Origin: Turneriella sp. | GTDB lineage: Bacteria > Spirochaetota > Leptospiria > Turneriellales > Turneriellaceae | NCBI GenBank assembly: GCA_965279515.1 | Contig: CBDIID010000003.1 | Location: 1,920,001 to 1,984,000 of the forward strand | Length of the DNA stretch: 64,000 nucleotides | Direction: 5' to 3' | Shown here: positions 45,337 to 64,000 of the stretch, one piece after another | Numbering within the stretch: the first letter of the stretch is position 1 | Layout of the letters: each line of letters begins with the position of its first letter | Made by a program: the position numbers and the translations under genes | The notes under the pieces: generated by a model | What the model saw: the letters and a program-made list of their open reading frames with translations, nothing else | Told to the model about the DNA's origin: nothing | Databases searched by the model: none

Positions 45337-46041
45337 TTATTTAGCACCGGGGCCGACGAGCAGAACCGCCGCCAACTGGAAGGGACTGGTTACGATATCG
45401 ACGGGTACAGCGATTCCATACCAGGCATACAGCAAAGCAAGTTGAAACCGACTCCGCTGTACCCACTCGATGTCGCCGAGCACCTCACTGTACTCGGCAC
45501 CCGGCGCTTGCACGAAATATGCCAACTCCGATTCTTTCTGCCAGAAACCGTGCATCGCGCTGAAGGTATAGGTGTTGCTGAAATCCATGACCAAAAGTCC
45601 CGCGGGCAAACCCGGCACGGCGGTGAAAGTGAAATGGCGCTTGAGGATATCCGCCAGATCTGTCTTATCACCCGGCTTGAGAAACAGAATGGTGCGAAAG
45701 GCCTTCTCGTCCATGCAGCAGGTATTTTGCTGAATCAGGAAAACATTTTCGTCGCTCGCAAACCTTTGGCGCGATTCAAAGAAACGTATGCCGCGCGGCG
45801 ACGATTCGACATTCAGATAGCGGCCTTCGCCGATCAGCAGCCGGTCGAATTGCATGGAGGCGACGCCGTCTTTCACCCGAAGGCGGCCCGGCAGAATACG
45901 ATAATTGCCCGTCGCGCCCTGTGAGCGGTCGAATTCGTTAATGCTCGAGCGGTATTCGCTGACCGCCTTGTTATTCCGCGTGGTCAGGCAGGCGGAGGCC
46001 ACAAGGGCAACGGTAAGTGGTAACAGCCAAAATCGGCCCAT
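45337..46041 (-). CDS. Hypothetical lipoprotein
   Basis: Lipobox (ASAC); C-terminal AVPVDIVTSPFQL hydrophobic motif. Confidence 0.7.
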   Translation of the reverse strand: MGRFWLLPLTVALVASACLTTRNNKAVSEYRSSINEFDRSQGATGNYRILPGRLRVKDGVASMQFDRLLIGEGRYLNVESSPRGIRFFESRQRFASDENVFLIQQNTCCMDEKAFRTILFLKPGDKTDLADILKRHFTFTAVPGLPAGLLVMDFSNTYTFSAMHGFWQKESELAYFVQAPGAEYSEVLGDIEWVQRSRFQLALLYAWYGIAVPVDIVTSPFQLAAVLLVGPGAK

Positions 46042-46165
46042 GTGCTGAGTTTTATCCGGGCCCTCTTACTGAAAGCAAAAACATGCTTCAGAGGCGGTGC
46101 GGACTACGCAAGGGGCTGCCAGCAGGTTGTTTAAAACGGTTCGTTTCGTTCACACCCGGGGATAG

Positions 46166-47224: not shown

Positions 47225-47234
47225 GAAAAAACTC

Positions 47235-48488
47235 CTAAGGATTGTTGAAATGTCCTGCGGGCCAGGGGTTTGCATACGCCGGGTTATTGATAAACTTCGT
47301 ATCGGTGAGCGACTTCAGAAATTCAATGAGGTCAGCGCGTTCTTGCGTGGTAAGGGAAAATCCCTTGACGAAAGAATTTTTCAAGGGAGAAAGTTTTCCA
47401 TCTCCTGCATTAGGTCCCGAAGCAATCAACCTGCCCCCGCGGGCGTAATGATCAATGACGCCGTCGAGATCTGTGACCGAACCATCATGCATGTAAGGTG
47501 CGGTGAGTTCGACATTGCGAAGTGTGGGCGCCTTAAAACGCCCCATATCCGCCGCATTTCCCGTTACGTCCTTAATTCCCTGGCTGGCCGTGGGATACGC
47601 ACCGGTACCGCCCAGATTATAGAGACCATTATTCGCAAAATCTATTTCGGCAAAAGATTTGCGCGAGTGATCCTCGCTGTTCGTAAAATTGATACCTGTG
47701 TGGCAATGAAAACATTCGAGATTTTCGCTGTTAAAGAGATTCAACCCGTTTTTCGCTGATGCGCTAAGAGCTGCAGAGTCGCCCCGGTTATAGCGGTCAA
47801 AAGGAGAATCAAAGCCGATGATGGAGCGTTGAAAGACTTCGAGTGCGCGGGTTATATTCCCCATGGAAAACGGATCGCCCGTATCCGGAAATGCAGTGCG
47901 GAAAAGTTTTTGATAAATTGAATCTGCCCGCATTTCAGCGAGCCGGACATTTTCAAAGCCAGTCATGCCAAGTTCGACCGGATTCTCCCCGAAAATCGGT
48001 ACCTGCGCCTGAATATTCAGTCTTTTCATCAGCGGGTTTTCCCACGTAACGACCGGCTGCCACGCAATGTTGACAATATGCATACTGTTGCGCGGATGAA
48101 AATCCCCGGTCGAACCTTTCGCAGTGAGAATACGATCTGTTCCCGATTTTGAAAAATCAGCGCTGCCATCGTTGACATTCATGTCATCGGCAAATGCATT
48201 CGCCTGGTGATGGCAGGTGGCGCAGGCAAACGTCTTGTTACCGGAGAGCCGTTTGTCATAGAAAAGATGGCGTCCAAGTTCAACCTTTTCGTACGTCATC
48301 GGATTATCCGCCAGGACCCGCGGCGGTGGAATATTCGCGGGAATTTGCCAAACGTAATCTCCCGAGGGCGTTATCAGCTTCGGGGTGAAATTCTCGCACC
48401 CCACAGCCACAAGCAGCCCACCGCACGCGCCGAGCGCGCGTACGGAGACCGCTTGTTTTAAGGCGGTTAAAAAGCCGGAAACAATCAT
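47235..48488 (-). CDS. MbnH-type di-heme enzyme (bCcP/MauG superfamily), paralog 1
   Basis: LGRHLFYD.RLS, CATCH, CFHCH and FKAPTLRN...APYMHDG; adjacent to an MbnP gene. Confidence 0.88.
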   Translation of the reverse strand: MIVSGFLTALKQAVSVRALGACGGLLVAVGCENFTPKLITPSGDYVWQIPANIPPPRVLADNPMTYEKVELGRHLFYDKRLSGNKTFACATCHHQANAFADDMNVNDGSADFSKSGTDRILTAKGSTGDFHPRNSMHIVNIAWQPVVTWENPLMKRLNIQAQVPIFGENPVELGMTGFENVRLAEMRADSIYQKLFRTAFPDTGDPFSMGNITRALEVFQRSIIGFDSPFDRYNRGDSAALSASAKNGLNLFNSENLECFHCHTGINFTNSEDHSRKSFAEIDFANNGLYNLGGTGAYPTASQGIKDVTGNAADMGRFKAPTLRNVELTAPYMHDGSVTDLDGVIDHYARGGRLIASGPNAGDGKLSPLKNSFVKGFSLTTQERADLIEFLKSLTDTKFINNPAYANPWPAGHFNNP

Positions 48489-49459
48489 TCGACGCGGAAA
48501 AAAGACTGGGTCGAACTCTGTGTCACCTGACCACCGCTTACCGCCGCATACGATGTTCCGTTTGTCGCATCCCGTGCTGCATTTGTTGTACCTGTATAAC
48601 TATAGGCGAGTCCAAGGCGAGGCATGACAAAACGGCATTCCGGATCGCCGGTTCCCGACATACATCCGGCAGGTGCTCCCTGGTCCGCAGTGTTCAGGTT
48701 CAGATCGCGCACGACTTCTTTAAGGTCGGCGATAATGCGCAGCGAAGAAAGTGACGACAAACCGTTTTGGTAGGCTTCGGGAATATTCAGAGTCACCTCG
48801 GGGCGATTCGGTGTGGTACAGGTTACCTGATCCTGCGTTGCCCCTGTTTGTGTGCAGCTTAAGCTACCAATATGAACATTGAAAGCCGAAGCGTCATATC
48901 CGCCACCGCCTGAGGTCAGAAAGTCGAGCCGGGCTGCTTTGCGTCCACTCGTCCACGACCAGTAAAGAGCCGCAACATTGAGAGGGGCTGGAGCATTGTT
49001 CACGTCAAGATGATTCAAGCTGGATGGAATCCCGAGCGTGAATTTAATCTTCGAGTACTTATCGCCTGCCGTCACCGCAACAGTCCCCTTAACCTGGGAA
49101 TTTGTTGCGCTCGTAGGGCCGGTAGTCGCTGCGCAACCGCCCGTACCATTCTCAAAATCGAGGAGTGTAACGTTTTGGTACTGCCAGGTATTGTCTGCTG
49201 TCAAAGAAACGGTGACCTCACTGCCGTCCGATTTCACCAGTTTTACGTCATGAATATAGAAACGAAAATCGCGCGCAGCAAGCTGGGTCGACCCGGTACC
49301 AACACCGGAATAAGTCGTACCGCAGGCAAAATCTGCCGAACCGACTTTGGCTTGAAAATTCAGGACTAAATCCGTGGTATTCGCATCGATCTGGGTTTTT
49401 ACGCATCCCGCGGTAAAAAACATACCGCAAAGCATGGTTATGATTATTTTGTTTTTCAT
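48485..49459 (-). CDS. MbnP-family copper-binding lipoprotein, paralog 1
   Basis: Lipobox, DFRFYIHDV, WQYQNVTLLDFE, F.LGIP..LNH, WSW, HIGS..C and CMS...DPEC. Confidence 0.85.
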   Translation of the reverse strand: MKNKIIITMLCGMFFTAGCVKTQIDANTTDLVLNFQAKVGSADFACGTTYSGVGTGSTQLAARDFRFYIHDVKLVKSDGSEVTVSLTADNTWQYQNVTLLDFENGTGGCAATTGPTSATNSQVKGTVAVTAGDKYSKIKFTLGIPSSLNHLDVNNAPAPLNVAALYWSWTSGRKAARLDFLTSGGGGYDASAFNVHIGSLSCTQTGATQDQVTCTTPNRPEVTLNIPEAYQNGLSSLSSLRIIADLKEVVRDLNLNTADQGAPAGCMSGTGDPECRFVMPRLGLAYSYTGTTNAARDATNGTSYAAVSGGQVTQSSTQSFFRVE

Positions 49460-49483
49460 TTTTTTCTCCTTGTAAATTTTGGG

Positions 49484-50131
49484 TTAAAAAGTCATGGCAA
49501 CGCTCAGAAGGGGTTGCACGCTTAAGGCACTCGCCGAATAATCCGTACTTGCCCCGCCGCCGCTGGCCGCCTGGCTGACGGTCCAAAAAAAATACGAGAA
49601 ATTCACCGCGCCACCGACAAAGATATGGGTGGCGATTTCATAATCGTATCCCACCCGCAAAGCGGCGAGCGGACTGACTGCTGTGTACGTGGTCGCCGTT
49701 GCCCCCGAAATCTTGAGCAGGTTTATGCTCGCGCCGAGACCGAGACCCACGTAGAGATTTTTTACTGGAAAATACCGCGCATACGCTGCGACAGGCACCT
49801 GGGTAAGCTGGGTCGTATTCGTCGCAGAACCGATCGTAGCATTATTCTTGTAGGTAACCTGGTATCCGCCGGATATCCCCAATTGAGAGCTACTGTTACC
49901 GTACCACAGGGTTACGCCAAACGCCGGCGAAAGCACGGCACCGTTATCGGAGCCATAGACCGTCTCAACCGCAGAAGCGTATGAGCTTTTTGTGGCGTAA
50001 TTGATACCGCCATAAACCTGACCGATAAGATTCGCAGAGCGCCAAAACTCGTGGGGTGCTGGCTTGGTTTCTGCGGACAGCGTTCCAAAACCGGCAAATA
50101 TTGAACATAGAAAAATAATTCGTAATTTCAT
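49484..50131 (-). CDS. Small outer-membrane beta-barrel protein
   Basis: GAGG RBS, signal peptide, ~8 amphipathic beta-strands, C-terminal Phe. Confidence 0.7.
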   Translation of the reverse strand: MKLRIIFLCSIFAGFGTLSAETKPAPHEFWRSANLIGQVYGGINYATKSSYASAVETVYGSDNGAVLSPAFGVTLWYGNSSSQLGISGGYQVTYKNNATIGSATNTTQLTQVPVAAYARYFPVKNLYVGLGLGASINLLKISGATATTYTAVSPLAALRVGYDYEIATHIFVGGAVNFSYFFWTVSQAASGGGASTDYSASALSVQPLLSVAMTF

Positions 50132-50249
50132 AAATTCCTCGTAATTAAAAATTTTTGATGATCGCGCACACCGGAAGTGAGCAAACAAAACGCCTGACCA
50201 CGCGACTCAATGGCGCGGGCTTTAAAGCGGAAATTGCTACTTGTGTGCG

Positions 50250-50639
50250 CTAAGCCCGGGGGGGCGGAGTTTCAATGTCGGCAAGGTATGAAATGTAAAG
50301 AGGAGAGCTGATTTGAATGGCGGAAACATGGTATTGCACCGCGGTTAATCCCACCTGATTGCCCGTGAATACCCAGCGCGCGAACGCTGGCAGCACAGAA
50401 TCGTCGGCTTCGTCGGCGCAGGGATGGTCGGCTTTCAGAATTTTCGCCTTTGCCATGGCCTTGTTCAGCCTGTTGCATCCGCAGGGGCAATCTTTGCCCT
50501 TTTGCACTTTCTGCTTTGTATGAACGCAGAGAAAATATTTCGGTTGCTGCGCCGTAGCAACTTCAAAAGCACCAGCGAGCTGAGCAATAAACAGCGTGAG
50601 GCCAAAGCCGTGCAAGATTTTACACCGGAACACGCGCAT
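50250..50639 (-). CDS. Cys-rich PPPR-ending leader protein A (candidate stalling uORF)
   Basis: Signal/TM, CVH...CPCGC...HPC, ends DIETPPPRA; paralog of the ORFs at 56745, 60174 and 61970. Start uncertain. Confidence 0.8.
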   Translation of the reverse strand: MRVFRCKILHGFGLTLFIAQLAGAFEVATAQQPKYFLCVHTKQKVQKGKDCPCGCNRLNKAMAKAKILKADHPCADEADDSVLPAFARWVFTGNQVGLTAVQYHVSAIQISSPLYISYLADIETPPPRA

Positions 50640-50701
50640 GCGTCCAGAATTGATGGCGAGACGCTCCGTCAAGAGATATAAAGATCTTTTATTTCACTTG
50701 T

Positions 50702-51793
50702 TTACCCTGCCTCGTTGTGGTTGTGGTGAGAGTAAAGGCTGAAATTCCATGAAACGCCGAAATTCAGCCTGCCCTCGACTTTCTGCTGCGGCTCGTTCAA
50801 CATCTGCAAAACCGGAAATTCTTTGGAGATAAAACAGCCGAGTTCGAGCGGCAGATTCAAACGCATACCCACAGTCCAGAACGTGATAAGACCCCCACTG
50901 TTAACAATTATCGCGTCATGGTCGCGGGACTTCATCATATAACGCGCGGTTAACTCGGTGAAGGTAAAGAGTTTCGTGCGATCGAGATCAAATGCCCTGA
51001 ACGAAAGCGCGACGCCGCCGTCGATGCGGTCTCCGATTTTATAGGTCTTGTAATAGCCGCGGTAGATATAACTGCCGCTCGCGGTCAGTGTGAAGACATT
51101 CGCAAATTGTTTACTGGCTGCAAGACCCGCCATAAAATCTACGCTCCCACTGCCGGGTGTCGCCGACGGATCGAGAGAAAACTGATCTGTTCCCCCGGCG
51201 CCCGAGACCACATGATAGCTCGGCTGCGGAATGTTGCCGCCCGCAACCTGCGCAGCGGGTAGAGAATTCAAGGCCACCGACTCGCTGGCGCCCGCGAGGT
51301 TGCCGGTGGGTAACTTGACCCCGCCCAACCCCGCGAGGGTCCAGCCTGCGCCGGAGAAAAATTTCACCTTGCCATTCAGCCAGAGGTCGGTGAGACCCGC
51401 GACATTTCCCGCGTCGATGAGCTTGTAGGCAGTATTCGAATCAAGCACGCCCTCGCGTAAGCGGTGCCCGTAATACCACCCGATCGTCGCCGATGCGTCG
51501 AGCCATGAGAGAATGCCATAACCCAAAGTCACGTTCGAGATCGACCCCAGGCCCAGCGTGTCGATATGCGATCCCGCCGTCTTCATCTTCTGTGTCGCGT
51601 CTGAGATCGCCACGTCAGGGTATTCTGCGTACGAAGTAAAACTCTGCATAATGGAGAGCGAGAAATGATGGCGCTCAATCGTATCGGGCATGATCACGCT
51701 GCCGGTGGCCCCCGTCGTTCCGGGCCCATGGTCGGCGTGTACGAAACTTTGCAGCAGGGATAGAAACAAAAAAACGGAGAGAATATTTTTCAT
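50702..51793 (-). CDS. Outer-membrane beta-barrel transporter, paralog 2, with His-rich tail
   Basis: Signal peptide then DHGP; GLTD...KLPTG...PGSGSVD; ends SHHNHNEAG. Confidence 0.75.
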   Translation of the reverse strand: MKNILSVFLFLSLLQSFVHADHGPGTTGATGSVIMPDTIERHHFSLSIMQSFTSYAEYPDVAISDATQKMKTAGSHIDTLGLGSISNVTLGYGILSWLDASATIGWYYGHRLREGVLDSNTAYKLIDAGNVAGLTDLWLNGKVKFFSGAGWTLAGLGGVKLPTGNLAGASESVALNSLPAAQVAGGNIPQPSYHVVSGAGGTDQFSLDPSATPGSGSVDFMAGLAASKQFANVFTLTASGSYIYRGYYKTYKIGDRIDGGVALSFRAFDLDRTKLFTFTELTARYMMKSRDHDAIIVNSGGLITFWTVGMRLNLPLELGCFISKEFPVLQMLNEPQQKVEGRLNFGVSWNFSLYSHHNHNEAG

Positions 51794-51815
51794 ATAATTT
51801 CCTTGAAATAAAACA

Positions 51816-52988
51816 TTATGGATTGTTCGATGACCCCTTCGGCCAGGGGTTCGAGAATTTGGGATTCGTCACAAATTCCGTATCGGTGAGGCTACGCAGA
51901 AATTCTATCAGGTCGCTTTTGTCGCCAGCAGTAAAACTGCCACTAAAGTTCTTTACCAGCGGATTCTTGCGCGTGTTGAGAGCCCCGTCGCCATCGAAAC
52001 CGGCGCCTTTACCGGTTACATTGCGGCCGCCGCGCTTATAATGCTCGATCACATTATCGAGAGTATCGATCGAACCGTCGTGCATATACGGCGCCGTGAG
52101 TTCGATATTTCTGAGCGTCGGTGCCTTAAAGCTGCCGTTATCAGCGACATTGCCCGTCACGAGGTTGAGGCCGCTGTTGCCGCTCGGGAAGACATTGGCG
52201 TTGCCAACGTTATAGATCCCATTGTTCAGAAACTGGATGTCGGCCGCTACCTTGCTGTAATAGTCTTCGGCGCTCGAAAAGGTAATACCCGCATGGCAGT
52301 GAAAACAATCCGCGGTTTCACCAAAAAAGAGGTTCATACCACGCTTTGCCGCTGCGCTCATCGCCGTCTTATCGGTGCCCGTGATATACTTGTCGTATGG
52401 AGATTTGCCGCTGATCAGCGTACGCTGAAAGGCCTCGAGCGCATCGCGTATGTGAGCGACAGAAATCGTCGGGGCATCCTTGGCAAAGGCGGCATTAAAG
52501 AGACCAACGTATTTGTCATCGGCCGCAAGCCGCGTCACGACTGTAGCTTCCATACCCGCAAGCCCCAGCTCGACCGGCGTCGTACCAAAGAGCGGCACAT
52601 TTGCCTGTACATTGAGCCGTGTCTGCAATGAATTCGCCCAGGTCAGCACCGGCTGGTACGCGAGGTTAATCAGCGACATCGAGTTGCGCGGATGCGCCTC
52701 ACCTGTCGAGCCGATGCCCACGGTGAGGCCGTCTGAGAACGCCTTGTTCTGGTGGTGGCAGCCTGCACAGGCCTGCGTCTGGTTACCTGACAGGCGTTTG
52801 TCGTAGAAAAGATGGCGACCCAGATCGACCTTCTCGTTGGTCATCGGGTTATTTTCAAATTCGCGTGGCCGTGGGAAACCGGGGGGGAGATCCCACTTAA
52901 ATGCGCTGGGCTCCTGGATGTATTTGAAATCCAGGTTCTGGCAGCCGACGGCCACGAGGGCCAGAGCGAAACTCAATACCGTACGCAT
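51816..52988 (-). CDS. MbnH-type di-heme enzyme, paralog 2
   Basis: Lipobox, CAGCH, CFHCH and FKAPTLRNIELTAPYMHDG. Confidence 0.88.
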   Translation of the reverse strand: MRTVLSFALALVAVGCQNLDFKYIQEPSAFKWDLPPGFPRPREFENNPMTNEKVDLGRHLFYDKRLSGNQTQACAGCHHQNKAFSDGLTVGIGSTGEAHPRNSMSLINLAYQPVLTWANSLQTRLNVQANVPLFGTTPVELGLAGMEATVVTRLAADDKYVGLFNAAFAKDAPTISVAHIRDALEAFQRTLISGKSPYDKYITGTDKTAMSAAAKRGMNLFFGETADCFHCHAGITFSSAEDYYSKVAADIQFLNNGIYNVGNANVFPSGNSGLNLVTGNVADNGSFKAPTLRNIELTAPYMHDGSIDTLDNVIEHYKRGGRNVTGKGAGFDGDGALNTRKNPLVKNFSGSFTAGDKSDLIEFLRSLTDTEFVTNPKFSNPWPKGSSNNP

Positions 52989-53972
52989 CTATTCTACCCT
53001 GAAGAAGACCTGGCCCGAGGTAGGGTAAACAGTGGGAGATCCCGCACTGCTCGCAGTTAAGCCGCGCGCGGTGGATGACCCCGTATAAGAGAAGTCGACA
53101 CCCCAGTTGTTGAGTACGGCCTTACACTCGGGATCGCTGCGGTCAGAGTGACAGCCCGGCTGCGTGCCCCCGGTATTCGCGATCGAGAAATCCGTGTCTT
53201 TATAGAGCTCTTTCGCGTCGGCGACCACTGTCTGCCCGTAAGTGAAGTTCAATTCTATTGCCGGCCGGTTCGATGTGTCGCAGACAATGTCGGGCGGCGA
53301 CGCGAAGGTATCACAATCGATACTGCCCAAATGCGTGAAAAACGGATTGTACGTGTTTACGTTGAACTCCACGACCGCATGTTTGTAGCCGGTCGTCCAG
53401 CTCCAGAACATATACGTCACGTTGAGCGGCGCATTGGTGTTGCCGACGCCATTCTGATTGAGGTTCTGCGGTACGCCGAGCTTGAAGCGTAGCTTCGTAA
53501 ACGTGAGCGCCTCGCTCGCGGCGATGGTGCCACGCACCGTGGTATTCGTACCGGCATTACCCTGTGCAGCGCACTGCGTACTAGCGGCGGCATTCTCAAA
53601 ATCGAGCAGCGCGAGGTTCTGGTACTGGTAGGCGGCATCTTGAGTGAGGGTGACGGCGACTTCGCTGCCATTGGCCCTCACGAAACGCACGTCGTGCACA
53701 AAGAAGCGGAAATCTTTGGGCACGAGCGTCGCTCCGCCGCCAGCGCCGACACCGGAATAACTGGCCGTCGAACAATCGAAGACCTGCGTCCCGACCTTGG
53801 CAGCAAACTGTATCGTCACATTTTGCTGGGGTACGGAGCTGCCCGAACCCGAGCCCGCCGAAGACCCCGCTTCGGCTTTCTTTTTTTCTTCATCAATCGC
53901 CTGCAATATTTTATTGTCTGCGCATGCACTCAGCGAAAGAAAAAGTGCGGCGAAAAATAGATATATTTTCAT
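52989..53972 (-). CDS. MbnP-family copper-binding lipoprotein, paralog 2
   Basis: LSAC lipobox, DFRFFVHDV, LALLDFE, MFWSWTTGYKH, HLGS..C and CHS...DPEC. Confidence 0.85.
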   Translation of the reverse strand: MKIYLFFAALFLSLSACADNKILQAIDEEKKKAEAGSSAGSGSGSSVPQQNVTIQFAAKVGTQVFDCSTASYSGVGAGGGATLVPKDFRFFVHDVRFVRANGSEVAVTLTQDAAYQYQNLALLDFENAAASTQCAAQGNAGTNTTVRGTIAASEALTFTKLRFKLGVPQNLNQNGVGNTNAPLNVTYMFWSWTTGYKHAVVEFNVNTYNPFFTHLGSIDCDTFASPPDIVCDTSNRPAIELNFTYGQTVVADAKELYKDTDFSIANTGGTQPGCHSDRSDPECKAVLNNWGVDFSYTGSSTARGLTASSAGSPTVYPTSGQVFFRVE

Positions 53973-53980
53973 ATCATCTC

Positions 53981-55030
53981 CTAATCCAATCGGAATTCTT
54001 TTCTTTTCAGAAAATTTTCGTCGGTAAGGGTCAGTAAAAACTCTTTGAGGTCGGCTTTATCCTGCGTCGAAAAATGAAATCCGCCTGCCGGTAGTTTGGC
54101 ATCGAGTGTCGCAGACCGCTGAATACCCGATGAATAATGTTCGATCACGGCCTCAAGCGTCGCAAAACGCCCGTCGTGCATGTAGGGCTTTGTCACGGCA
54201 ATGTTGCGCAATGTGGGAGTGCGGAATTTGCCGATGTCTTCGTTCTTGCGGGTGATACGAAACCGGCCCATGAGCTGACCTTCGTGGTCGGGGGGATATT
54301 TGGTATCGAGACCGTTGTTGTGATAACCATTATCGGTCAACAGCGGGCCGTTATGACACACGGCGCATTTGCCGGTATACAGATTGCGCCCCCGTGCTTG
54401 TGCGTCGTTGAGCATGCCCTCTTGTCTCAGCACACGATCATAGAGCGAATCGAAAGAAACGAGGGTTCGCACGAATTGCGCCAGCGCCTGCAGCATGTTT
54501 GTGATAGACACCTGCTGGTCGGGAAACGCCTTTTCAAATGCGCGGCGGTAAGCACCGTCAGCCCTGAGCTTATCGAGCGAAACGCCGATCGGTTGTCCCA
54601 TTTCATCTGCGTTATGCAATGGTCCAATCAGCTGCGACTCAATATTTTTAGCACCGCCATCCCAGAATAAGCCGTTGTTCGACCAGGCGAGGTTAATGAG
54701 AGCCGGAGAGTTGCGCGTCGCCGGTTTGCCCGACACGCCGCTCTTCGCCAATGCGACGCCATCGCTGAACGCCAGCGATTGATCGTGACAGGTCGCGCAG
54801 CTGACTTTGTCATTGGCAGAAAGCCTTGGCTCATAAAACAGCCTGCGCCCGAGCGCGATAATTTCCTTTCGGAATCTATTGGTATCAGGCTCGGGCAACG
54901 GCCCCAGAAAGCGCAGTGTTTTGGGATGTGCATATTCGTGCACGGCAAGCACCGGATTTTCAGACCGGCAAGCGATCACGAACAGCGCACCCCAAAGCGC
55001 GGCAAGCCGCGCTTTGTTGGTCACGCGCAT
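53981..55030 (-). CDS. Di-heme cytochrome c peroxidase-like protein (MbnH-like), third and divergent copy
   Basis: LGRRLFYE.RLS, CATCH, FWDG, CAVCH and FRTPTLRN...PYMHDGR. Confidence 0.88.
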   Translation of the reverse strand: MRVTNKARLAALWGALFVIACRSENPVLAVHEYAHPKTLRFLGPLPEPDTNRFRKEIIALGRRLFYEPRLSANDKVSCATCHDQSLAFSDGVALAKSGVSGKPATRNSPALINLAWSNNGLFWDGGAKNIESQLIGPLHNADEMGQPIGVSLDKLRADGAYRRAFEKAFPDQQVSITNMLQALAQFVRTLVSFDSLYDRVLRQEGMLNDAQARGRNLYTGKCAVCHNGPLLTDNGYHNNGLDTKYPPDHEGQLMGRFRITRKNEDIGKFRTPTLRNIAVTKPYMHDGRFATLEAVIEHYSSGIQRSATLDAKLPAGGFHFSTQDKADLKEFLLTLTDENFLKRKEFRLD

Positions 55031-55032
55031 GA

Positions 55033-56634
55033 TTACGGTACGCTGGCCGAGGTTACCGAGAACACGTTGTTCTGGTAAGCGTTAGCCAAATTACCCATGA
55101 GCGCCGAATTGGTCGATGCATTGATGTACTTAGGCGACCCGGAAACTGTCGAGGTATTCACACCCGCACCACCATTAACCTGGAACAGTTTCGCCACGTT
55201 TGCCCGAACGTTAATCACCGCATTCTTGCCTTTGGTTAGCGTTATGCTCGCAGGAAAAGTTAAGGCTGTCAGGCTGCGATAATTTGCGTTTGCGCCGATA
55301 TCGAAGCCAAAATTGACAGAACCGCAACTCACGCACTGCCCGGTAATTTGTGAAAACAGGTAACTACTATTCCACATCCAGGTATACGTTGCCATATCAC
55401 GGTGAATATGCAGCTCTCCTGCTTGCAGGCTTAGGTTGTTGTTATAGGTCGAGTCTACACCAACCGAAAACTGGATGGCTGTGTAAGTCCCTGATGGCAC
55501 ATCGGCAATCGAAATTTGCTCACGGTTGGCCGCCGCAATCGTCATACCGCTATTGATGTTGCCTGGGCTAATCGCACTGTTTGTTGTCATCAGATAGTAA
55601 CTACCCGGCACGGAGTATTGCGTTGTGTCCGCTTTGGTAAGTTTAACGTTGCTTATCCAATAGCGAAAACGCGTAAAACGCAACGTGTTACTGTGATCAT
55701 CGGTATACGTCGTATTCAGCGCAAAGGTGGTGCCGTTAAAATCCTTGGCGACGTTAATTGTCGCAGTGCCGACATCGGCTTCAGAAACCGCCGTGGTAGT
55801 GGCGCTTACAAGGCTTACCGCAGAAGCAAAGTTTGCGGCTACGGTACTCATCTGGCCGGCATTATTGAAGCCGTTGATAGCACGCTTTGTAACACCCGTA
55901 TCGACGCTAACTGTGCCAATATCGATACCCGCGAACAATTTTTCTACGTCAATCTTTGCGACAATCGTTGGGGCAGAGGTCGCACTGACAGTGATATTCG
56001 TGGGAAAGCTCAGTGTTTTAGTCTGATAATTTGCATTCGTACCAAATTCGAGCGCAAAAGCCTGCTGCCCTGAGCAGCTTGTGCAGGTTCCCGAAGTTTT
56101 GCCAAAAATGTAGCTGGTAACCCACGACCACTCGATGTTGCCCATATGAGAAAAGAGGTGAAGTTCCCCTGTTCTCAAGCTCAGATCGTTATTATACGTT
56201 GAATCGACGCCTACGCTGAATTTAATCCCTTTATAGCTTCCGACAGGGACTTTTTTCAGGGTCACATTTTCCCTATTTCCCGCCGCCAGATTAAAGTTAG
56301 GCACGCGTTCGCCAGTCGTATCGCCCGTGACAGCATTATTCTGCGAAAGCAGGTAATACGCGTCCGGCACCGCAACTTCGGAATTGTCGTCCTTGATGAA
56401 TTTAACGTTCGATACCCAATAACGAACCTCGTTGATGGTGATTGTGTTTCCCGCTGCTGTCGTATACGATGTGCCGAGAGCAAAAGCCGCCCCATTGAAA
56501 TACTTCGGCATTTGCAGCGAAACCTCGCCCGTTTCGCTGGCAGATGCAGCGGTGGTACCAGATTCCTCTGAATTTTTTGCGCAGGCACCCAATAGCGCGC
56601 TGCAAAGTAAGATAAGATAAAATTTCGATTTCAT
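55033..56634 (-). CDS. Lipoprotein with two tandem MbnP-like domains
   Basis: GGAGG RBS, LGAC lipobox; internal duplication with RYW(V/I)SNVK, YYL, FSVGVDSTYN, WxW and CxxC in each half. Confidence 0.8.
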   Translation of the reverse strand: MKSKFYLILLCSALLGACAKNSEESGTTAASASETGEVSLQMPKYFNGAAFALGTSYTTAAGNTITINEVRYWVSNVKFIKDDNSEVAVPDAYYLLSQNNAVTGDTTGERVPNFNLAAGNRENVTLKKVPVGSYKGIKFSVGVDSTYNNDLSLRTGELHLFSHMGNIEWSWVTSYIFGKTSGTCTSCSGQQAFALEFGTNANYQTKTLSFPTNITVSATSAPTIVAKIDVEKLFAGIDIGTVSVDTGVTKRAINGFNNAGQMSTVAANFASAVSLVSATTTAVSEADVGTATINVAKDFNGTTFALNTTYTDDHSNTLRFTRFRYWISNVKLTKADTTQYSVPGSYYLMTTNSAISPGNINSGMTIAAANREQISIADVPSGTYTAIQFSVGVDSTYNNNLSLQAGELHIHRDMATYTWMWNSSYLFSQITGQCVSCGSVNFGFDIGANANYRSLTALTFPASITLTKGKNAVINVRANVAKLFQVNGGAGVNTSTVSGSPKYINASTNSALMGNLANAYQNNVFSVTSASVP

Positions 56635-56744
56635 ATTTCCTCCAAATTCCAAAATCTGCCGTAAACTTACGGCGCGCACACGGCTCGCCTTAGCTGACCG
56701 CGCGCAAATAGCCTGAGATTTTGCTCAGGGTATGTTATGTGAAT

Positions 56745-57137
56745 TTAGAGCGCCCGGGGGGGCGGAGTTTCAATGTCGGCGAGATAGGATTTATAGAGAG
56801 GAGAACTGATTTGAATTAGCGAAATACGATACTGCACCGCGGTTAATGCCACTTCATTGCCCGTGAACACCCAGCGCGCGAAAGCTGGCAGCACAGAATC
56901 TTCGGCCTCATCGGCGCAAATACGGTCAGATTTCAGAATTTTCGCTTTTGCCATTGCTTTTTTTAACTTACTGCAACCGCAGGGGCAAGCTTTGTGCTTT
57001 TCAATTTTTTGTTTGGTATGAACGCAGAGATAATATTTGGGTTGCTGCGCGTGGATTACCTCAAAGGCACCGCTGATTTGCGCGAAAAACAACACCAAAC
57101 CGAAGCCGTGAAGAACTTTGTAGCGCTTTAGCCCCAC
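56745..57137 (-). CDS. Cys-rich PPPR-ending leader protein B (candidate stalling uORF)
   Basis: Closely similar to leader A in protein and DNA; ends DIETPPPRAL. GTG start at 57137 inferred by alignment. Confidence 0.8.
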   Translation of the reverse strand: MGLKRYKVLHGFGLVLFFAQISGAFEVIHAQQPKYYLCVHTKQKIEKHKACPCGCSKLKKAMAKAKILKSDRICADEAEDSVLPAFARWVFTGNEVALTAVQYRISLIQISSPLYKSYLADIETPPPRAL

Positions 57138-57197
57138 AGCTGAAACCCCGCCCAAACAAGTGCCCGGTCAACCATTTTTCAAGATGAGTCGCGAGTC

Positions 57198-57234
57198 AAA
57201 AAATCCGGACACATTGTTTGCACAATGTGTCCGG
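57198..57234 (-). terminator. Rho-independent terminator after the cytochrome pair
   Basis: Perfect 13-bp stem CCGGACACATTGT-TTGC-ACAATGTGTCCGG followed on the minus strand by ATTTTTT. Confidence 0.8.
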
Positions 57235-57258
57235 TAGTGTTAGCAGTTGAAACGAGAT

Positions 57259-58605
57259 TTATTTCACAGAGAGAATGTAAGCCGCAAGCGCCTCGAAATC
57301 CTTCGCCTGCAACTGGTCTTCGAAACCCGGCATCTGTGGATAGCCTGGCCTTTTTTTGCCCGGCTTGCGTATCCACTGCATGAGTTGGGCTTCTTTACCC
57401 TTGTAAATCGAGACCATTTCGACCACGGGTGGGCCCACGAGCTTGGTCTTGATCTGGTGGCAGCCGACGCAATAGTTGTCGAAAAGCTTTTGCCCCTCGC
57501 CCACGAGAGGATTCTCTTTCGCCGGCCCGGCCTCGGGTTTCTTCTGCGCCGCGACTGCCGCATTAGCCTCGGCCACAAGCTTCTCGTATTCAGCCGTGCG
57601 TTCGGCGACGAGTTTCTTGTGTGGCCCCAAAGCGGTCTCGCGAATCACATGACGCCCCGACACCATGAGGATAACCACGATAGTCAGCGCAATCACGATC
57701 TTCGAAAAACGGCTGCCGATGGCCTCGGCAGGGCCAGAAACCGACTTCCACATCCAGACGAGCGTGAGAATGCCGACGACGACGGCAGGCGCCAGAATGG
57801 CGAGCAACGCCCAACTGATTGCCTTAGAAGGCAAGGTCAAGAGCACCAGCGGTCCCGCGACAAACTGCAGCAGCGTCGCCATGAAGGCGAGCGAGAGCAT
57901 GCGCTTGCGAATCTCATAGCGCGACAGATTGACAAACTTCTCTGCGTGCGGATATCCCTCGCGGCCAAAATACCAGAACAGAAAAAGTCCGGTCACTGTC
58001 AGCGAGGCTAACACGAAGTGAAAATAACGCGGGAAAACATTCGGCAATGCAAGCGCCGAGAAGAATCCCGAGACACTGCCCCATTTTTCCGGGTAGAGCA
58101 TCAGGTTGATGTTCGTCAGAAAAATCAACGGTATCGTCAGAAAGATCGCCGATGCAGCGCCGATCATCGCGATATGCAGCCCCTTGTTATCCTTGAGGAT
58201 ATCCCACAGATACTTGTGCGGGTACGTGAGTAAAAAACCCACCGTCACGAGCGGCACAATCGCAATCCAAAAGAGTCCCGTCAGCGCATTCGCCGAATAA
58301 AAATACACCGTGTAGAGCGTATTGATGAGCAACAGCGGAGCTACCCCCATCACGACGGCGAGACTCTTGTTGACGGTGATCGTCTTGGCAATCTCATGCG
58401 CAAGCTGGTCATAGTCTTTCTCTTTAAGACCCTTGAGCTGTGCGAAAAATGTCAACAGTGTTCCGCCCAGCATCAGGTTCACGAAAAGAATATGCACCAG
58501 AAACGAGAAGACCAACAGACCGACTGCGAGCCACTCGGGTAGCGGCAAGGGTAGCGGAATGTCTTTTGGCACCGGCACCGCGGCGAGAAATAGCGCGAAA
58601 TTCAT
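57259..58605 (-). CDS. Multi-TM membrane protein with C-terminal c-type cytochrome (cytochrome bd-related partner subunit)
   Basis: About 9 TMs, HILFVN and RYFHF; C-terminal CVGCH...MP heme c domain; coupled to the upstream gene. Confidence 0.75.
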   Translation of the reverse strand: MNFALFLAAVPVPKDIPLPLPLPEWLAVGLLVFSFLVHILFVNLMLGGTLLTFFAQLKGLKEKDYDQLAHEIAKTITVNKSLAVVMGVAPLLLINTLYTVYFYSANALTGLFWIAIVPLVTVGFLLTYPHKYLWDILKDNKGLHIAMIGAASAIFLTIPLIFLTNINLMLYPEKWGSVSGFFSALALPNVFPRYFHFVLASLTVTGLFLFWYFGREGYPHAEKFVNLSRYEIRKRMLSLAFMATLLQFVAGPLVLLTLPSKAISWALLAILAPAVVVGILTLVWMWKSVSGPAEAIGSRFSKIVIALTIVVILMVSGRHVIRETALGPHKKLVAERTAEYEKLVAEANAAVAAQKKPEAGPAKENPLVGEGQKLFDNYCVGCHQIKTKLVGPPVVEMVSIYKGKEAQLMQWIRKPGKKRPGYPQMPGFEDQLQAKDFEALAAYILSVK

Positions 58606-60002
58606 TTGCGCACCTCTGCCTCTGGCAGCCGCACACCGACTTCCTGTGCACCCTCGGCATTATCGGGATATTTTGCTGCGGCGAGAATGTAACTCGCGAG
58701 CGCACCCAACTCGGCCTCATTGCCAGGAAAAGGCGGCATGAAGTAGCGCGACTTATGCATGTTGCGCATATAGCCGACCATGGCATCTGCATTGAAATTA
58801 TCTTTACCCAAAAGGTTCTCAAACTTTTTCACCACAGAGTTGATGCCGCCCGAAGTGTGGCAGCGGCTGCATGCAAGCATAAAGATGTCTTTGCCCGATT
58901 CTACAGCATTTGCAGATGTAACCTCGCGGTACTTCACATAGGTCGCATGCTTCAAGATGCCGTCACGGTTTAAGAGCGCCATCTCTTTCGGCCGCACCAT
59001 GTTCGAATACATGTAATCGGCGATCACATAGGGTTTGCGAATGAATTCACGCGTACGCTCGAAGGTGACCATCAGCGTAATCGCCAGCCCTATCGGTAAC
59101 ACAAGAGCCAAGGCCGGTATACGCCAGCGGCCAATGATGCCCAGCACAGCGACAAAACCGATGACGCCTGCGGCGACTGCCATGATAACGAGCAGATTGT
59201 CATACCATGACGAGAACTCCATCGTGCCGATCGCGACCGACATGTTCTGCCGCATCATATCGGGTATGACCCAATAATAATAGATCGAACCGATGATGAG
59301 AAATGGCGTCCACGCGAGTACCCACGAACCCGTAAGACGTACGGCAGATCGTCTGAGCGCGTCATTATTCCGCACAAAAAACGGAATCAGGGCAAAAACG
59401 ACAGATCCGCCCATGACCATCGCGAGCGGAGTACGAAACGCCAGCTGCGCAGGGTAAACGGGATTCAGAAACCCCTTAATCAGCGACTGGTCGGTACGCC
59501 AGCTGCCCGGGTCCATCATGAAACTCAATATCGCGACAATGATCGCCATGGTGACCCAAGAGGCGATCGAAAGCGCGATGCCGAAGCGAATGTGTTTCCA
59601 TTTTTTCTCTGGTGAAGCATTTGATCTGCGCCAGCTGAGAAAATAAATCAGAATGAGGATGACTTCGGTGACGAAGACAATCCACTCCACGAACCAGGCG
59701 GCGAAAAAGACCCGTATCAGGCTGCCAATCGATGCAGGGCTGACAAGGCTCGCCGAGAGCCAGATGCCGACGCCGGTCATGGCGCCGAGCGATGTGGTGA
59801 TGATGAATGCGAAGAACATGACCTTGCGGGCCAGTTCATCCCATTCTTTGCTGTTATTCTTGTACCCGACGTATTCGAGATACGTCACATACGGTATGAG
59901 GCCCACCGCCAAAGCGTGGTTAATCACCACGTGCAGAATCGCAATGATCGCGATTAAAATGCGGTTGCCCATAAAATCCAAATGAAATATGGGAAAGTCC
60001 AT
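58602..60002 (-). CDS. Cytochrome bd subunit I-like membrane protein fused to cytochrome c
   Basis: ILHVVINH, GAMTGVGIW, WFVEW.VFVTE, ILSFMMDPGSW and RE.IRKPY resemble CydA TM motifs; C-terminal CSRCH...MPPF; no evident Q-loop. Confidence 0.72.
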   Translation of the reverse strand: MDFPIFHLDFMGNRILIAIIAILHVVINHALAVGLIPYVTYLEYVGYKNNSKEWDELARKVMFFAFIITTSLGAMTGVGIWLSASLVSPASIGSLIRVFFAAWFVEWIVFVTEVILILIYFLSWRRSNASPEKKWKHIRFGIALSIASWVTMAIIVAILSFMMDPGSWRTDQSLIKGFLNPVYPAQLAFRTPLAMVMGGSVVFALIPFFVRNNDALRRSAVRLTGSWVLAWTPFLIIGSIYYYWVIPDMMRQNMSVAIGTMEFSSWYDNLLVIMAVAAGVIGFVAVLGIIGRWRIPALALVLPIGLAITLMVTFERTREFIRKPYVIADYMYSNMVRPKEMALLNRDGILKHATYVKYREVTSANAVESGKDIFMLACSRCHTSGGINSVVKKFENLLGKDNFNADAMVGYMRNMHKSRYFMPPFPGNEAELGALASYILAAAKYPDNAEGAQEVGVRLPEAEVRK

Positions 60003-60173
60003 AGTTTGAACTCCTTATAGTTAATAATGTATAGGTTAAGCCGCGCGCAATAATCGGTGTTTATATGCTGCGCCATCAGGTACAGCGACGTCACCGGCGC
60101 GAATCACGGCAGTGAGAGGGCATACCTGTGGCTGCGTGCGATTCAGGCTGATTCAATGCGCGGCAGGCGGCGC

Positions 60174-60575
60174 TTAGGCCGCAGCAGATCGGGGTGGAGG
60201 CGGAGTTACTTCAGCGATAATACTATGATAAAATGGATCAATACTGGGGACAACCACAGTGAAATAACGGGGAGTCGGCACCGAAAACGGTAAGTATATG
60301 CCGCCGAAGCGATCAAAATTCGGCATGTGAGCAATATCGTCATCGGGGCTGGCACAGACATCGTCGGCGTCGACGAGCACCGCGATTTTTTTGGGTGACT
60401 TATGCTTGTGCCCGCACGGACAGGGATTTCCCTTCTGTACGCGCACCTTCATGTGGGGACACATATAATATGTTTTCACCTGTAGATTCGAAACGAGGTC
60501 GGGCACAGCCGACAATTGCAATGTAAAAAGAAAAAGACCACAAAGATGAATCGGCGTGAGAAAGCGGATCAGCAA
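60174..60575 (-). CDS. Cys/His-rich PPPR-ending leader protein C (candidate stalling uORF)
   Basis: Signal/TM, CPH...CPCGHKH...DVC, ends EVTPPPPRSAAA. Start uncertain (TTG at 60575 or 60641). Confidence 0.75.
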   Translation of the reverse strand: MLIRFLTPIHLCGLFLFTLQLSAVPDLVSNLQVKTYYMCPHMKVRVQKGNPCPCGHKHKSPKKIAVLVDADDVCASPDDDIAHMPNFDRFGGIYLPFSVPTPRYFTVVVPSIDPFYHSIIAEVTPPPPRSAAA

Positions 60576-60661
60576 GTTATGACCAAAGACTTTTTTCGTA
60601 CAACCGGTAAAGAAATTTCGCGAAGACTTTACGACGTTCAAAGCAAGAAGACTCTGACAAC

Positions 60662-61237
60662 ATGAAAATTGCCCTGCTACTTGTTTTCTCTACTCTGCCG
60701 CTCACCGCTCAAACAAACGCGGGGTTAAAACTCGGCGGCACGCTCATGAACGGCAAAGAGGGTACACGCGCGATCGTCGAGTTGGGTGACGGCAGAACCA
60801 CGCAGGTCTGCGAAGCGGGCAAAGCTTGCTCGAAAAATGCCTGCGACTGCGAGGTCGCCGGTTATAAAGTCGTGCATATCGAAGCGCGCAAGGTAACGCT
60901 GCGGCGCGGCGGCGAACGTTTCACGCTGACCCTCGATGGCCTGCGCCCCGAAGGACAAACAGGTAAATATGCGGGCACAATTACCCGGGACTTTTCCCGC
61001 GCAAAACTTCAGGAAACCCTGAATACTCGCGGCGAGAAGGCCACGGACGTGTTACACAAACTGCTCGCTGGCGCCGATGTCAGGCCGACAGACACCATCA
61101 AAACCGTGCAAGGACATCCCCTTGAAAGAGTAAAGTGGGGTACGGTGCACGGGAGCATTCAGGCCGCCGAACAGGTGGCCATTGAAATCGAGCGCGAAGG
61201 CAAGCTGATACTCTTACAGCTGCGCATGACGCAATAA
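60662..61237 (+). CDS. Exported hypothetical protein with Cys cluster; weak GspC/PDZ-like features
   Basis: Signal peptide; LGGTL...AIVE...GYKVVHIE..KVTL resembles the GspC HR domain; CEAGKACSKNACDC; C-terminal IEIEREGK. Confidence 0.6.
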   Translation: MKIALLLVFSTLPLTAQTNAGLKLGGTLMNGKEGTRAIVELGDGRTTQVCEAGKACSKNACDCEVAGYKVVHIEARKVTLRRGGERFTLTLDGLRPEGQTGKYAGTITRDFSRAKLQETLNTRGEKATDVLHKLLAGADVRPTDTIKTVQGHPLERVKWGTVHGSIQAAEQVAIEIEREGKLILLQLRMTQ

Positions 61238-61248
61238 AAGCCAAGAAC

Positions 61249-61875
61249 TCAGCCGGGACAGACCGGGCTCAGCTTAGCGGTAATTTTCACATCGATATCG
61301 GGCCACAGCTTGCTTTGGCCGTCTTTACCCTTATGCAGGTCTTTGCAGGCCAGGTTCAAGGCCGCGAGCGGTGAAAGGGCGTTGAATTCAGCGATATCAA
61401 GCCTAAAGGCGACTTCGAGCCCTGCACCGTCGACGCGGCGCACCGTAGCCGAGACCTTTTTCTCGATGCCGTTGATTTTCAGGAGCAGGGTGGCGTTGTT
61501 TGCGCTCACCGATTCGACGCGTGCCCTGATCTCCCCCTTATTTTTCATCGCTGCGAAAAACGCGTAATAAATCTTCTTATCGCGGTCGGGATTATTCGTA
61601 TTCACGCTCGCGGCATCGACGATGAATTCGGCTTCTGCAAAGACCTCTTCGGGTTTCGTGGCGGTGCGCGCATTTTCAGTTCGAATCGAATTAAAAGTTC
61701 CCGAAACACCGAGGCGCTCTGTAAACTTGTATGCAGTCCATTGCAGCTTTGCCTGCGTGGGGTCGAAATCAAAGCGGCAGAGGCTGTAATCCGGTTTTAT
61801 TTCTGCTTTCTTGCAAGACCAGAAGAGTGCCAAGATAAGTACAATGCCAACAATGTGACTCTTTCGCAAAATCAT
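61249..61875 (-). CDS. YceI-family lipoprotein
   Basis: WSC lipobox; WTAYK...VSGTF and SVNTNNPDRD motifs. Confidence 0.8.
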   Translation of the reverse strand: MILRKSHIVGIVLILALFWSCKKAEIKPDYSLCRFDFDPTQAKLQWTAYKFTERLGVSGTFNSIRTENARTATKPEEVFAEAEFIVDAASVNTNNPDRDKKIYYAFFAAMKNKGEIRARVESVSANNATLLLKINGIEKKVSATVRRVDGAGLEVAFRLDIAEFNALSPLAALNLACKDLHKGKDGQSKLWPDIDVKITAKLSPVCPG

Positions 61876-61969
61876 AGTTGGGAAAAGCCTCTGCGATACC
61901 GCGCGTAAAGCCGGTTTTCACAACAGCGGTTTACGCTGTATCCATAAGATAGATTTGCTGCGGAGCGCC

Positions 61970-62326
61970 GTGCTGAGAAAGATTACCGCCACGCTGATTT
62001 GCCTCTTGCTTCTTGCAACTGCCACCGAGGCGGTCGGACTTATCTCACACTCGACCGGCGTACTCAAATGCCCCAGCTGCAAAATGAAAATGCAGAAAAT
62101 CGACGACTGCCGCTGCCATAAGAAAAAACCTGTTTCCGCGGCGAAAATCCACGACCCCTGCGGCGACAACGAGGGGGATTTCCACATTTCCTTCGACCGG
62201 GTGCAGGGTGTTGCGGCGCCCGAAGTCTTTGTGCCGGCCGCTTTTGTCAGTACATACCTCTCTCTCTCTTATCGCTACCCCACCGGTATCACGAGCGATA
62301 TTCCGCAGCCGCCGCCGCGGCGTTAA
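61970..62326 (+). CDS. Cys-rich PPPR-ending leader protein D (candidate stalling uORF)
   Basis: GGAG + GTG start, signal peptide, CPSC...CRCH...HDPC, ends DIPQPPPRR; directly upstream of the TonB-dependent receptor. Confidence 0.8.
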   Translation: MLRKITATLICLLLLATATEAVGLISHSTGVLKCPSCKMKMQKIDDCRCHKKKPVSAAKIHDPCGDNEGDFHISFDRVQGVAAPEVFVPAAFVSTYLSLSYRYPTGITSDIPQPPPRR

Positions 62327-62400
62327 CTCCTGCCCAACAAACAAATAACCACTGAAAGTGGTGCATCCGCGCTAAGGCGCGAGATAAAGGAGTTATGTTT

Positions 62401-64000
62401 ATGCGATTATTTACGATCAAAGCCGTTGCCGTTCTTCTCATCACGAGCAGCGCAATCTGGGTACAGACACCCGAAAAGAAAGATGAAAAAACTAAAAAAA
62501 ATCCCGTGGAAATTCCCGCTAACGCAGCGGATCCTGAAGGTGTAAAAACCATCGCGGTTGAAAAAGGCGAGACTAAACCTCTCGAAGAAGAAGAAACCCT
62601 GCCCGACGTCGTCGTCACGGCCACGCGCGAAGAAGAAAAACGCCGCGATGTGCCGATGTCGATCGGCAAGATCAAACGCGACTCGATTAAAGATACGAAG
62701 CCGATCCATCCATCCGAGCTGATGAACCAGTCGCCGGGTGTGTTTGTGAACACGACAAGCGGTGAGGGACACCAGACAATGATCCGCCACCCGATCACGA
62801 CCGGCTCGGTGTATCTTTACCTCGAAGACGGTGTGCCGACGCGCTCACCAGGATTTTTCAACCATAACGCGCTCTTCGAAATTAACGTGCCACAAGCCGG
62901 CGGTATTGAAATCATCAAAGGCCCTGGTTCAGCGCTCTATGGCAGCGATGCACTCGGTGGGGTTGTCAACGTGCTGACGCGCCCTGTGACAAAAGACCGC
63001 GAAATCGACCTGAGCTTCGAATACGGCGGTTTCGGCTGGAAAAGGCTTTTGGCCTCGGCCGGCGAAAAGTTTGGCGACCATGCCATACGCGTCGATGGAA
63101 ACATGACCGATTCGAAGGGCTGGCGTGACGGTACGAAATACTCGCGCCAAAGCGGTACGCTGCGTTGGGATGCAGTCTTCGGCAAACATAAGTTCAAGAC
63201 CGTCGTCACGGCTTCGAATATCGACCAGCAATCGGCAGGCGCCGCGGCATTGCGCGAGGCGGATTATCTGAATAATTCGCAGGCGAACTACATGCAATTC
63301 TCCTACCGCCGCGTCAAAGCCGTACGTGTTTCAACTCAGTACGATTACGAAATCAGCCAGGGCAACAAGCTATCGGCCATTCTCTACGGACGCTACAACG
63401 AGATGGGGCAATTACCGAATTATATCGGCGCACAGACAACCCAGCGGGAAAACAACTTGCGCAATGCCTCGGCGGGATTGCTTTTCAAGCACCTGCTCGA
63501 TATTCAGCTTTTTCACTCAAAGCTGATTTCGGGTATCGACGCCGATTATTCGCCGGGAGTCTTTAACGAATGGAATGTAACGACTACAAAATCCGGCGAT
63601 TATTTTACGAGTTACACAACCGGCGCATTGCAATACGACTATGATGTTAAATTTTATCAGGCATCGCCGTTTGTCCAGCTCGAATCATCGCCGCTTACGC
63701 GAAAACTAAAACTGCAACTCGGTGCACGGTATGACTACATGGGTTATATCTATAAGAATAACCTGAGCGTCATTCAAACCGGTAATACACGCCGCCCCGA
63801 AGATGCATCGCCCAGCTTCAACCACCTCTCGCCTAAAGCGGGCGTCGTGTACGACTTCTTCGCCGAACTCAATGTCTTCGCGAGTTACCGCCACGGCTTT
63901 CGTGTGCCACAGCAAAGCGACCTGTTTCGCCAGGGCAGCGCCAATTCGGCCCTTGGCATCAAACCGATTAAAATCGATAGCTTTGAAATCGGTGTGAGGG
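62401..64000 (+). CDS. TonB-dependent receptor (3' end outside window; absent from the ORF track)
   Basis: My translation: AAGGAG RBS, signal peptide, TonB box LPDVVVTATR, plug (SPGV, GEGH, LEDGVP, FNHNAL, IEIIKGPGSALYGSDALGGVVN), then beta-strands towards the window edge. Confidence 0.95.
   Translation, partial: MRLFTIKAVAVLLITSSAIWVQTPEKKDEKTKKNPVEIPANAADPEGVKTIAVEKGETKPLEEEETLPDVVVTATREEEKRRDVPMSIGKIKRDSIKDTKPIHPSELMNQSPGVFVNTTSGEGHQTMIRHPITTGSVYLYLEDGVPTRSPGFFNHNALFEINVPQAGGIEIIKGPGSALYGSDALGGVVNVLTRPVTKDREIDLSFEYGGFGWKRLLASAGEKFGDHAIRVDGNMTDSKGWRDGTKYSRQSGTLRWDAVFGKHKFKTVVTASNIDQQSAGAAALREADYLNNSQANYMQFSYRRVKAVRVSTQYDYEISQGNKLSAILYGRYNEMGQLPNYIGAQTTQRENNLRNASAGLLFKHLLDIQLFHSKLISGIDADYSPGVFNEWNVTTTKSGDYFTSYTTGALQYDYDVKFYQASPFVQLESSPLTRKLKLQLGARYDYMGYIYKNNLSVIQTGNTRRPEDASPSFNHLSPKAGVVYDFFAELNVFASYRHGFRVPQQSDLFRQGSANSALGIKPIKIDSFEIGVR

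Follow-up and report, generated by a model that had tools for sequence, protein, structure and literature searches.

Does the end of a short open reading frame of Turneriella sp. hide the translation start of the metal-related operon that follows it and, if so, what would expose it? The reading frame, here called leader B, lies in a window of 64,000 nucleotides (the whole stretch of DNA analysed) and stops 110 nt before the ATG (56634) of a gene with two MbnP stretches. MbnP binds copper through a kynurenine made by MbnH, according to PMC11951088. In Rhodobacter capsulatus, the tail PEPEGPPPRL of the leader peptide CutF stalls the ribosome and opens a stem over cutO's Shine-Dalgarno (SD) sequence, as described in PMC9973294 and bioRxiv 10.1101/2025.02.05.636593. 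In this report, we present evidence that the RNA pairing at leader B is real and selected, and that leader B is most likely a leader-peptide switch whose mechanism is already known from CutF. What is new is an unannotated protein family, a spirochaete lineage and a long-range anti-SD sequence that overlaps the stop codon. Coordinates are collected in Table 1.

Table 1. Features of the leader B locus and of the surrounding gene cluster
Feature	Position	Strand	Remarks
Double-MbnP lipoprotein-like gene, first target	55033..56634	minus	Pfam MbnP, two stretches, E 1.3e-69
Following genes	50702..55030	minus	MauG/MbnH-like, MbnP, MbnH, one without family match
SD-containing arm of the double-MbnP gene	56640..56649	minus	GAAUUUGGAG
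Spacer hairpin 3	56658..56673	minus	94% of cells paired
Spacer hairpin 2	56675..56706	minus	GCTAAGGCG near loop; 85% of cells paired, two two-sided changes
Spacer hairpin 1	56712..56729	minus	two one-sided changes; all cells (100%) paired across 3 sequences
Anti-SD arm	56741..56750	minus	overlaps last codon and UAA stop (56745-56747)
T-P-P-P-R tail, putative arrest motif	56754..56768	minus	PPP at 56757-56765; P126 invariant
Second segment complementary to SD	56793..56805	minus	inside leader B coding region, Ser-Ser-Pro-Leu codons; putative role
Putative metal-binding cluster	56916..57026	minus	C38-x-H40, C51-P-C53-G-C55, distal C74
Basic then hydrophobic N-terminus	57048..57137	minus	resembles Sec signal or anchor; hydropathy peak about 2.0
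Leader B open reading frame	56748..57137	minus	130 aa from probable (inferred) GTG; longest frame 57155-56745, 136 aa
Terminator-like hairpin	57205..57234	minus	between upstream cytochrome genes and leader B; consensus match only
Paralogous leader A	50250..50672	minus	no predicted SD switch
Paralogous leader C	60174..60641	minus	no clear SD switch
Paralogous leader D	61955..62326	plus	UAACUCCU (62324-62331) pairs with AGGAGUUA (62388-62395) of TonB-dependent receptor gene

The original prediction held that the last codon of leader B, its stop codon and the next 4 nt can pair over 10 nt with a segment containing the GGAG that precedes the downstream ATG. Both the identity of the two segments and the pairing are exact: the reverse complement of 56741-56750 is CUCUAAAUUC, that of 56640-56649 is the SD-containing arm, and together they form 10 contiguous pairs, one of them G-U. 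On the basis of sequence and folding, the hidden SD of mbnP is a predicted pairing potential. The 10-bp helix is present in the minimum-energy and centroid structures, where it closes a multiloop of three hairpins, and z scores against dinucleotide shuffles are -2.75, -3.61 and -4.70 in three windows. Its probability is at least 0.98 when 30, 45, 90 or 150 nt of upstream context are included and 0.18 with 60 nt, because a coding segment 46-58 nt before the stop competes. The TCT CCT codons of the second complementary segment (Table 1) are retained in leader A and in the orthologous leaders L031 and L005. When the peptide is held fixed and codons and post-stop bases are randomised, the native pairing is reached at p = 0.042, and the significance of leader B taken alone is modest. 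A GTG at 56679 was considered as an alternative start of the MbnP gene and is disfavoured; orthologs align at MKSK/MKTK, with an SD.

All three hairpins that had been proposed for the spacer (56712-56729, about 56676-56705 and 56658-56673) occur in the minimum-energy structure. Shuffling the spacer gave a divided result. At -58.1 kcal/mol, the native fold is more stable than the shuffled ones (-46.7 +/- 3.2 kcal/mol). The native helix probability is, however, equalled by 7.3% of 300 shuffles; therefore, the hairpins are real but may not be needed to close the helix. The prediction had also pointed to GCTAAGGCG as common to the spacers of leaders B and D. The segment is indeed in both (56686-56694, minus strand; 62371-62379, plus strand), but it is not conserved and carries no weight. 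It is missing from the other 30 of 32 leader spacers, and some shared 9-mer is found in 88 of 3570 control spacer pairs. We rejected it as a motif because it is absent from orthologs and its frequency in the genome is as expected (30 occurrences against 30.2). The minus strand of the leader B spacer yielded no intrinsic terminator, and Rfam covariance models of riboswitches and leaders produced no match at E<=1 in positions 46000-64000.

Evidence for selection on the pairing comes from related leaders. All 10 pairs are kept in the three aligned B-type loci, namely B and both alignable orthologs. In L005, two adjacent pairs have changed on both sides in a compensatory manner, and L031 gains an eleventh pair, although three sequences are thin evidence. 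L005 also carries an inserted 62-nt repeat that has pushed the ancestral SD away from the start codon and shifted its working SD away from the conserved helix. The insert was discarded as a part of the switch, since the same repeat precedes unrelated genes and is better described as a low-copy repeat. Repeats of this kind, of approximately 60 nt with a long hairpin, a short hairpin and their own SD, lie directly before the start codons of unrelated genes in 5 places in 3 of 14 genomes (the L005 spacer; L016, L018, L067-L069), and none is in the genome to which the Turneriella sp. window belongs. At a fourth double-MbnP locus (L019), proline codons serve as the anti-SD arm instead.

We then compared 32 family members that have a stop codon and a downstream open reading frame (L033 and L036 were dropped as incomplete) with 226 control gene pairs from the Turneriella sp. 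genome, of which 203 were used for pairing and 120 for recoding. The probability that the SD is paired with the end of the reading frame exceeds 0.5 for 18 of 32 leaders and 8 of 203 controls. Masking that end saves more than 4 kcal/mol on opening the ribosome-binding site (RBS) for 18 of 32 and 6 of 203, the peptide-fixed recoding null gives p<0.05 for 12 of 32 and 7 of 120, and a helix of at least 9 bp between stop window and RBS is found in 7 of 32 and 1 of 226; because the leaders are related and the controls come from a crude home-made open-reading-frame caller, p-values overstate the case and counts overstate independence. Leader B itself has P = 0.13 in the 60-nt context of this family-wide pairing test, and 14 of the 32 leaders, including A and C of the window, do not reach P>0.5. 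Within the family, pairing shows weak cognate specificity (median rank 0.39; residual -0.89 kcal/mol, p 0.009). The anti-SD register differs by subfamily: across the stop (B), just after the stop (D type), in Thr-Pro codons (single-MbnP type) or in T-P-S codons (redoxin type).

A second set of leaders shows the same arrangement. Of the 161 genomes of the class that were searched for MbnP, 118 carry such a gene, and among 69 MbnP loci picked by score and genus spread, 62 are preceded by a leader resembling LIC_11090 (NF047775), nearly always with a PP tail; all four such leaders tested exceed the NF047775 cut-off. Excluding duplicates, L112, whose start was miscalled, and L160, which lacks an AGG, left 52 pairs of this Leptospira type, in a register that places the stop U opposite the A of AGG. 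In this register 77% of cells are paired, versus 32-50% in slid registers, and SD pairing has P>0.5 in 36 of the 52. Positions -3 to -6 from the stop covary, with U-A in 34 and A-U in 11 pairs at position -3, and C-G in 24 and U-A in 12 at position -4, although much of this covariation may reflect a few clade-level events. Cognate pairing exceeds noncognate pairing by 2.1 kcal/mol (57 distinct pairs). The original claim of selection on structure is thus backed by compensatory changes in a B ortholog, registers that differ by subfamily, enrichment over controls and Leptospira-type covariation.

In another family of the class, the leaders before mbnP end in RAPP, RGPP, RPPP or DPPR (L152, L153, L155, L156, L157, L161). 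Stems hiding the SD are predicted for L153, L155 and L156; L152, which scores 23.5 bits on the DUF2946 model (cut-off 23.7), and L161 have no clear switch, and the downstream start of L157 is uncalled. In sister genera (L083, L084), a transporter-like gene and mbnP are preceded by a further type of leader, which is rich in His and Cys and ends in PPS; SD pairing is predicted here too, and the leader has no significant match to a family.

Leader B is a protein-coding gene: dN/dS is 0.09-0.15 among B, L031 and L005 at about 45% synonymous difference. A GTG 130 codons before the stop, the probable start, is present in 13 of 29 homologs. Its signal-like N-terminus, modelled by AlphaFold as a helix over residues 3-30, suggests that the peptide is probably exported. 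C38, C51, C53 and C74 are invariant in all 29 aligned leaders, and the Cys/His cluster that they form part of would be suited to binding a metal. The peptide ends in ETPPPRAL, which is close to the GPPPRL of the CutF stalling tail, and the distance from the distal Cys to the PP is 50-52 aa in 25 of 32 leaders. The Thr codon before the proline run (56766-56768, minus strand) is ACT in 16 of 16 cases, compared with 364 of 2527 (14%) genome-wide. This codon is seen in B too, though the anti-SD of B lies elsewhere, and may be an ancestral or alternative anti-SD.

The four paralogs in the window are all that the genome contains. Every one of 13 genomes of the genus has homologs, as does 1 of 6 other genomes of the taxonomic family; 3 weak matches outside these, among 190 genomes of the class, were left out of the count. 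Searching 1.84 billion representatives gave 22 matches. The relatives that bear a name are assemblies of Turneriella and of other spirochaetes. Pfam and NCBIfam contain no significant match to the family. The C-P-C-G motif (56973-56987, minus strand) weakly matches three NCBIfam hypothetical families (best E 0.007-0.05), which we take to be SEC-C-motif proteins; judged by these matches, the ligand could also be zinc or iron. In the ESM Atlas, a DUF2946/CzcI cluster at 0.95 shares 138 of 256 features, which is a lead only. The AlphaFold model is uninformative (pLDDT 65, pTM 0.33), and Foldseek found no match to it at E<=0.001.

Copper is probably the metal sensed, judging by the cargo genes. 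Across the family these encode MbnP/MbnH, TonB receptors, redoxins, an unassigned transporter-like protein and cytochrome c membrane proteins. Within the window (47235-62326), the four leaders divide a metal-related cluster into modules, which hold three pairs of the MbnP/MbnH type, two membrane proteins carrying cytochrome c domains at their C-termini, and one TonB-dependent receptor. The two membrane proteins, encoded behind leader C (57259-60002, minus strand), are multi-pass, and their membrane parts lack a family assignment.

Of the known systems, CutF-cutO is the closest parallel. Both leaders are short, CutF being exported and leader B probably so, and both have a Cys motif, a PPPR tail and a stem that hides the downstream SD, which stalling is proposed to open. 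The rule for CutF-like leaders in PMC9973294 asks for fewer than 150 aa, PP in the last 15 residues, a same-strand neighbour within 1000 nt, a cleavable Sec signal peptide and retrieval from CutF-like seeds by an iterated profile search. Leader B conforms on the first three points, with 130-136 aa, a PPP that spans residues -6 to -4 and its 110-nt spacer, and the basic and hydrophobic N-terminus seen in hydropathy and the AlphaFold model is a candidate for the Sec signal. An SD-shielding stem within the reach of a stalled ribosome is represented by the predicted, covarying B stem, with release by one ribosome uncertain. The two differ in that leader B carries CxH...CPCGC...C rather than CxxxC, its anti-SD extends over the stop codon and, across 110 nt, closes a multiloop of three hairpins, its cargo is MbnP/MbnH rather than a multicopper oxidase, and its host is a spirochaete. 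It also lacks the DUF2946 match: none of 29 leaders matches PF11162 at E<=1, while another mbnP leader of the class matches at E 1e-4, so the model was in the searched set. The DUF2946/CruR signature, CxxC together with RAPP at the C-terminus, is likewise absent from leader B, which has CxH, CPCGC and PPPR. We therefore do not place leader B in DUF2946.

CruR homologs head operons for TonB receptors, MbnPH and AhpC-TSA, according to PMC9426467. CruR-bfrG of Bordetella pertussis, as described there, shares with leader B these cargo operons and a Cys motif that lies at a conserved distance from the arrest motif; it differs in having CxxC, RAPP and Rho-dependent termination, whereas leader B has PPPR and a visible output of SD occlusion. 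Arrest peptides of the SecM, VemP and MifM type also have a stalled ribosome open an SD-sequestering stem, but PMC10987492 and PMC9973294 describe them as monitors of protein export, and they lack a metal-ligand cluster. LIC_11090-type leaders resemble leader B in that they lie before mbnP, contain Cys and His, end in a PP tail and have an anti-SD over the stop codon, but use another helix register. Homology between the two families was not detected (HHalign probability 1%), and 0 of 29 leader B family members match NF047775. According to PMC9973294, Spirochaetota are scarce but present in its list of CutF-like proteins, so some of the leaders described here may already be in that list; those supplements of PMC9426467 that were examined name no spirochaetes. 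A literature search, for which few subscription papers were within reach, found no report on such leaders in Turneriella or Leptospira.

We favour, as probably correct, a CutF-like model in which stalling releases the SD and turns the MbnP/MbnH operon on. Leader B would be translated into a sensor peptide that is probably exported. In the default state, the terminal part of the reading frame would pair with the double-MbnP SD across the three hairpins and keep operon translation low. A ribosome dwelling at the PPP-R tail would cover the anti-SD arm, open the SD and allow translation of the operon; the assignment of the stalled state as ON follows from this geometry. During the dwell, the Cys cluster, about 50 residues from PPP-R, would sit just beyond the tunnel and translocon, and metal bound there, probably copper, would set the dwell time. 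For the sign of the response, analogy with the uptake-type cargo of CruR operons gives a slight edge to copper relieving the stall; that copper induces it, as in CutF, is a little less than an even prospect.

Folding with the RNA 5' of the ribosome masked agrees with this sequence of events: opening the B RBS costs 8.5, 5.5, 3.8 and 3.6 kcal/mol with the P site at P1, P2, P3 and R, and L031 and the D types show a similar step, while A and C show none. When one footprint is blocked and upstream RNA left free, the B RBS does not open (its cost goes from 11.9 to about 11 kcal/mol), and in footprint models opening needs three queued ribosomes in B and two in L031, because the SD of these two re-pairs with coding RNA. 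Loci of the D and Leptospira types are mostly open with one footprint, although the drop for D is smaller with 150 nt of context. Equilibrium folds disregard sterics and kinetics; therefore, the closed state may reflect either an artefact or a genuine second lock. On a speculative view, which we consider unlikely, three unalignable leader families of the class (the leader B family, LIC_11090 and DUF2946-like RAPP leaders) would have converged on hiding an SD with their own last codons and stop, and the second anti-SD of B-type leaders would keep the operon closed until at least two ribosomes have queued behind a long stall under metal control, as a dwell-time filter that ignores ordinary terminating ribosomes.

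The same helix could serve plain translational coupling, in which any ribosome reaching the leader stop melts it and no stall depends on metal; the leader would then be a small metal-binding protein of the ordinary kind. The helix statistics are the same for coupling and stalling, and because the arm overlaps the stop, a terminating ribosome would open it as well as a stalled one. We nevertheless judge coupling to be quite improbable, as it leaves unexplained the conserved proline tail at its fixed distance from the distal Cys, the recurrence of PP tails in unalignable leader families, and the spacers of 60-290 nt. Only just behind it in our estimation comes CruR-like control, in which a stall protects the transcript from Rho-dependent termination while the SD helix has a secondary role, such as keeping downstream RNA free of ribosomes for Rho. 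The shared cargo, the lack of an intrinsic terminator in the B spacer and the existence of leaders A and C, which have no SD switch and point to another output for some members, all suit this idea; yet the B spacer is mostly paired and offers little free C-rich RNA, and the SD pairing is selected and covaries.

Least credible, and in our view very improbable, is that the pairing is a by-product of composition, with C-rich proline codons and A/U-rich flanks pairing with any GGAG. The modest p-value of B alone, the 20 of 32 leaders that miss p<0.05 in the recoding null and the alternative partners in the coding region are what such an explanation would predict, but the B arm sits after the proline codons, and composition does not account for the compensatory changes, the excess of long helices over controls or the covariation across 52 Leptospira-type pairs.

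Stall-gated SD release thus remains our preferred reading, and it proposes a testable function for two unannotated families of small genes, the leader B family and LIC_11090. It extends to spirochaetes a mechanism shown, in the literature that we found, in one alphaproteobacterium, with covariation indicating that the SD-hiding stem is selected. It also offers a possible account of how metal tunes MbnP/MbnH operons in organisms other than methanotrophs. Finally, the Turneriella sp. cluster packs four paralogous leaders into 12 kb, and a switch is predicted for two of them but not for the others, which would allow a direct test of how one leader design gives different outputs.
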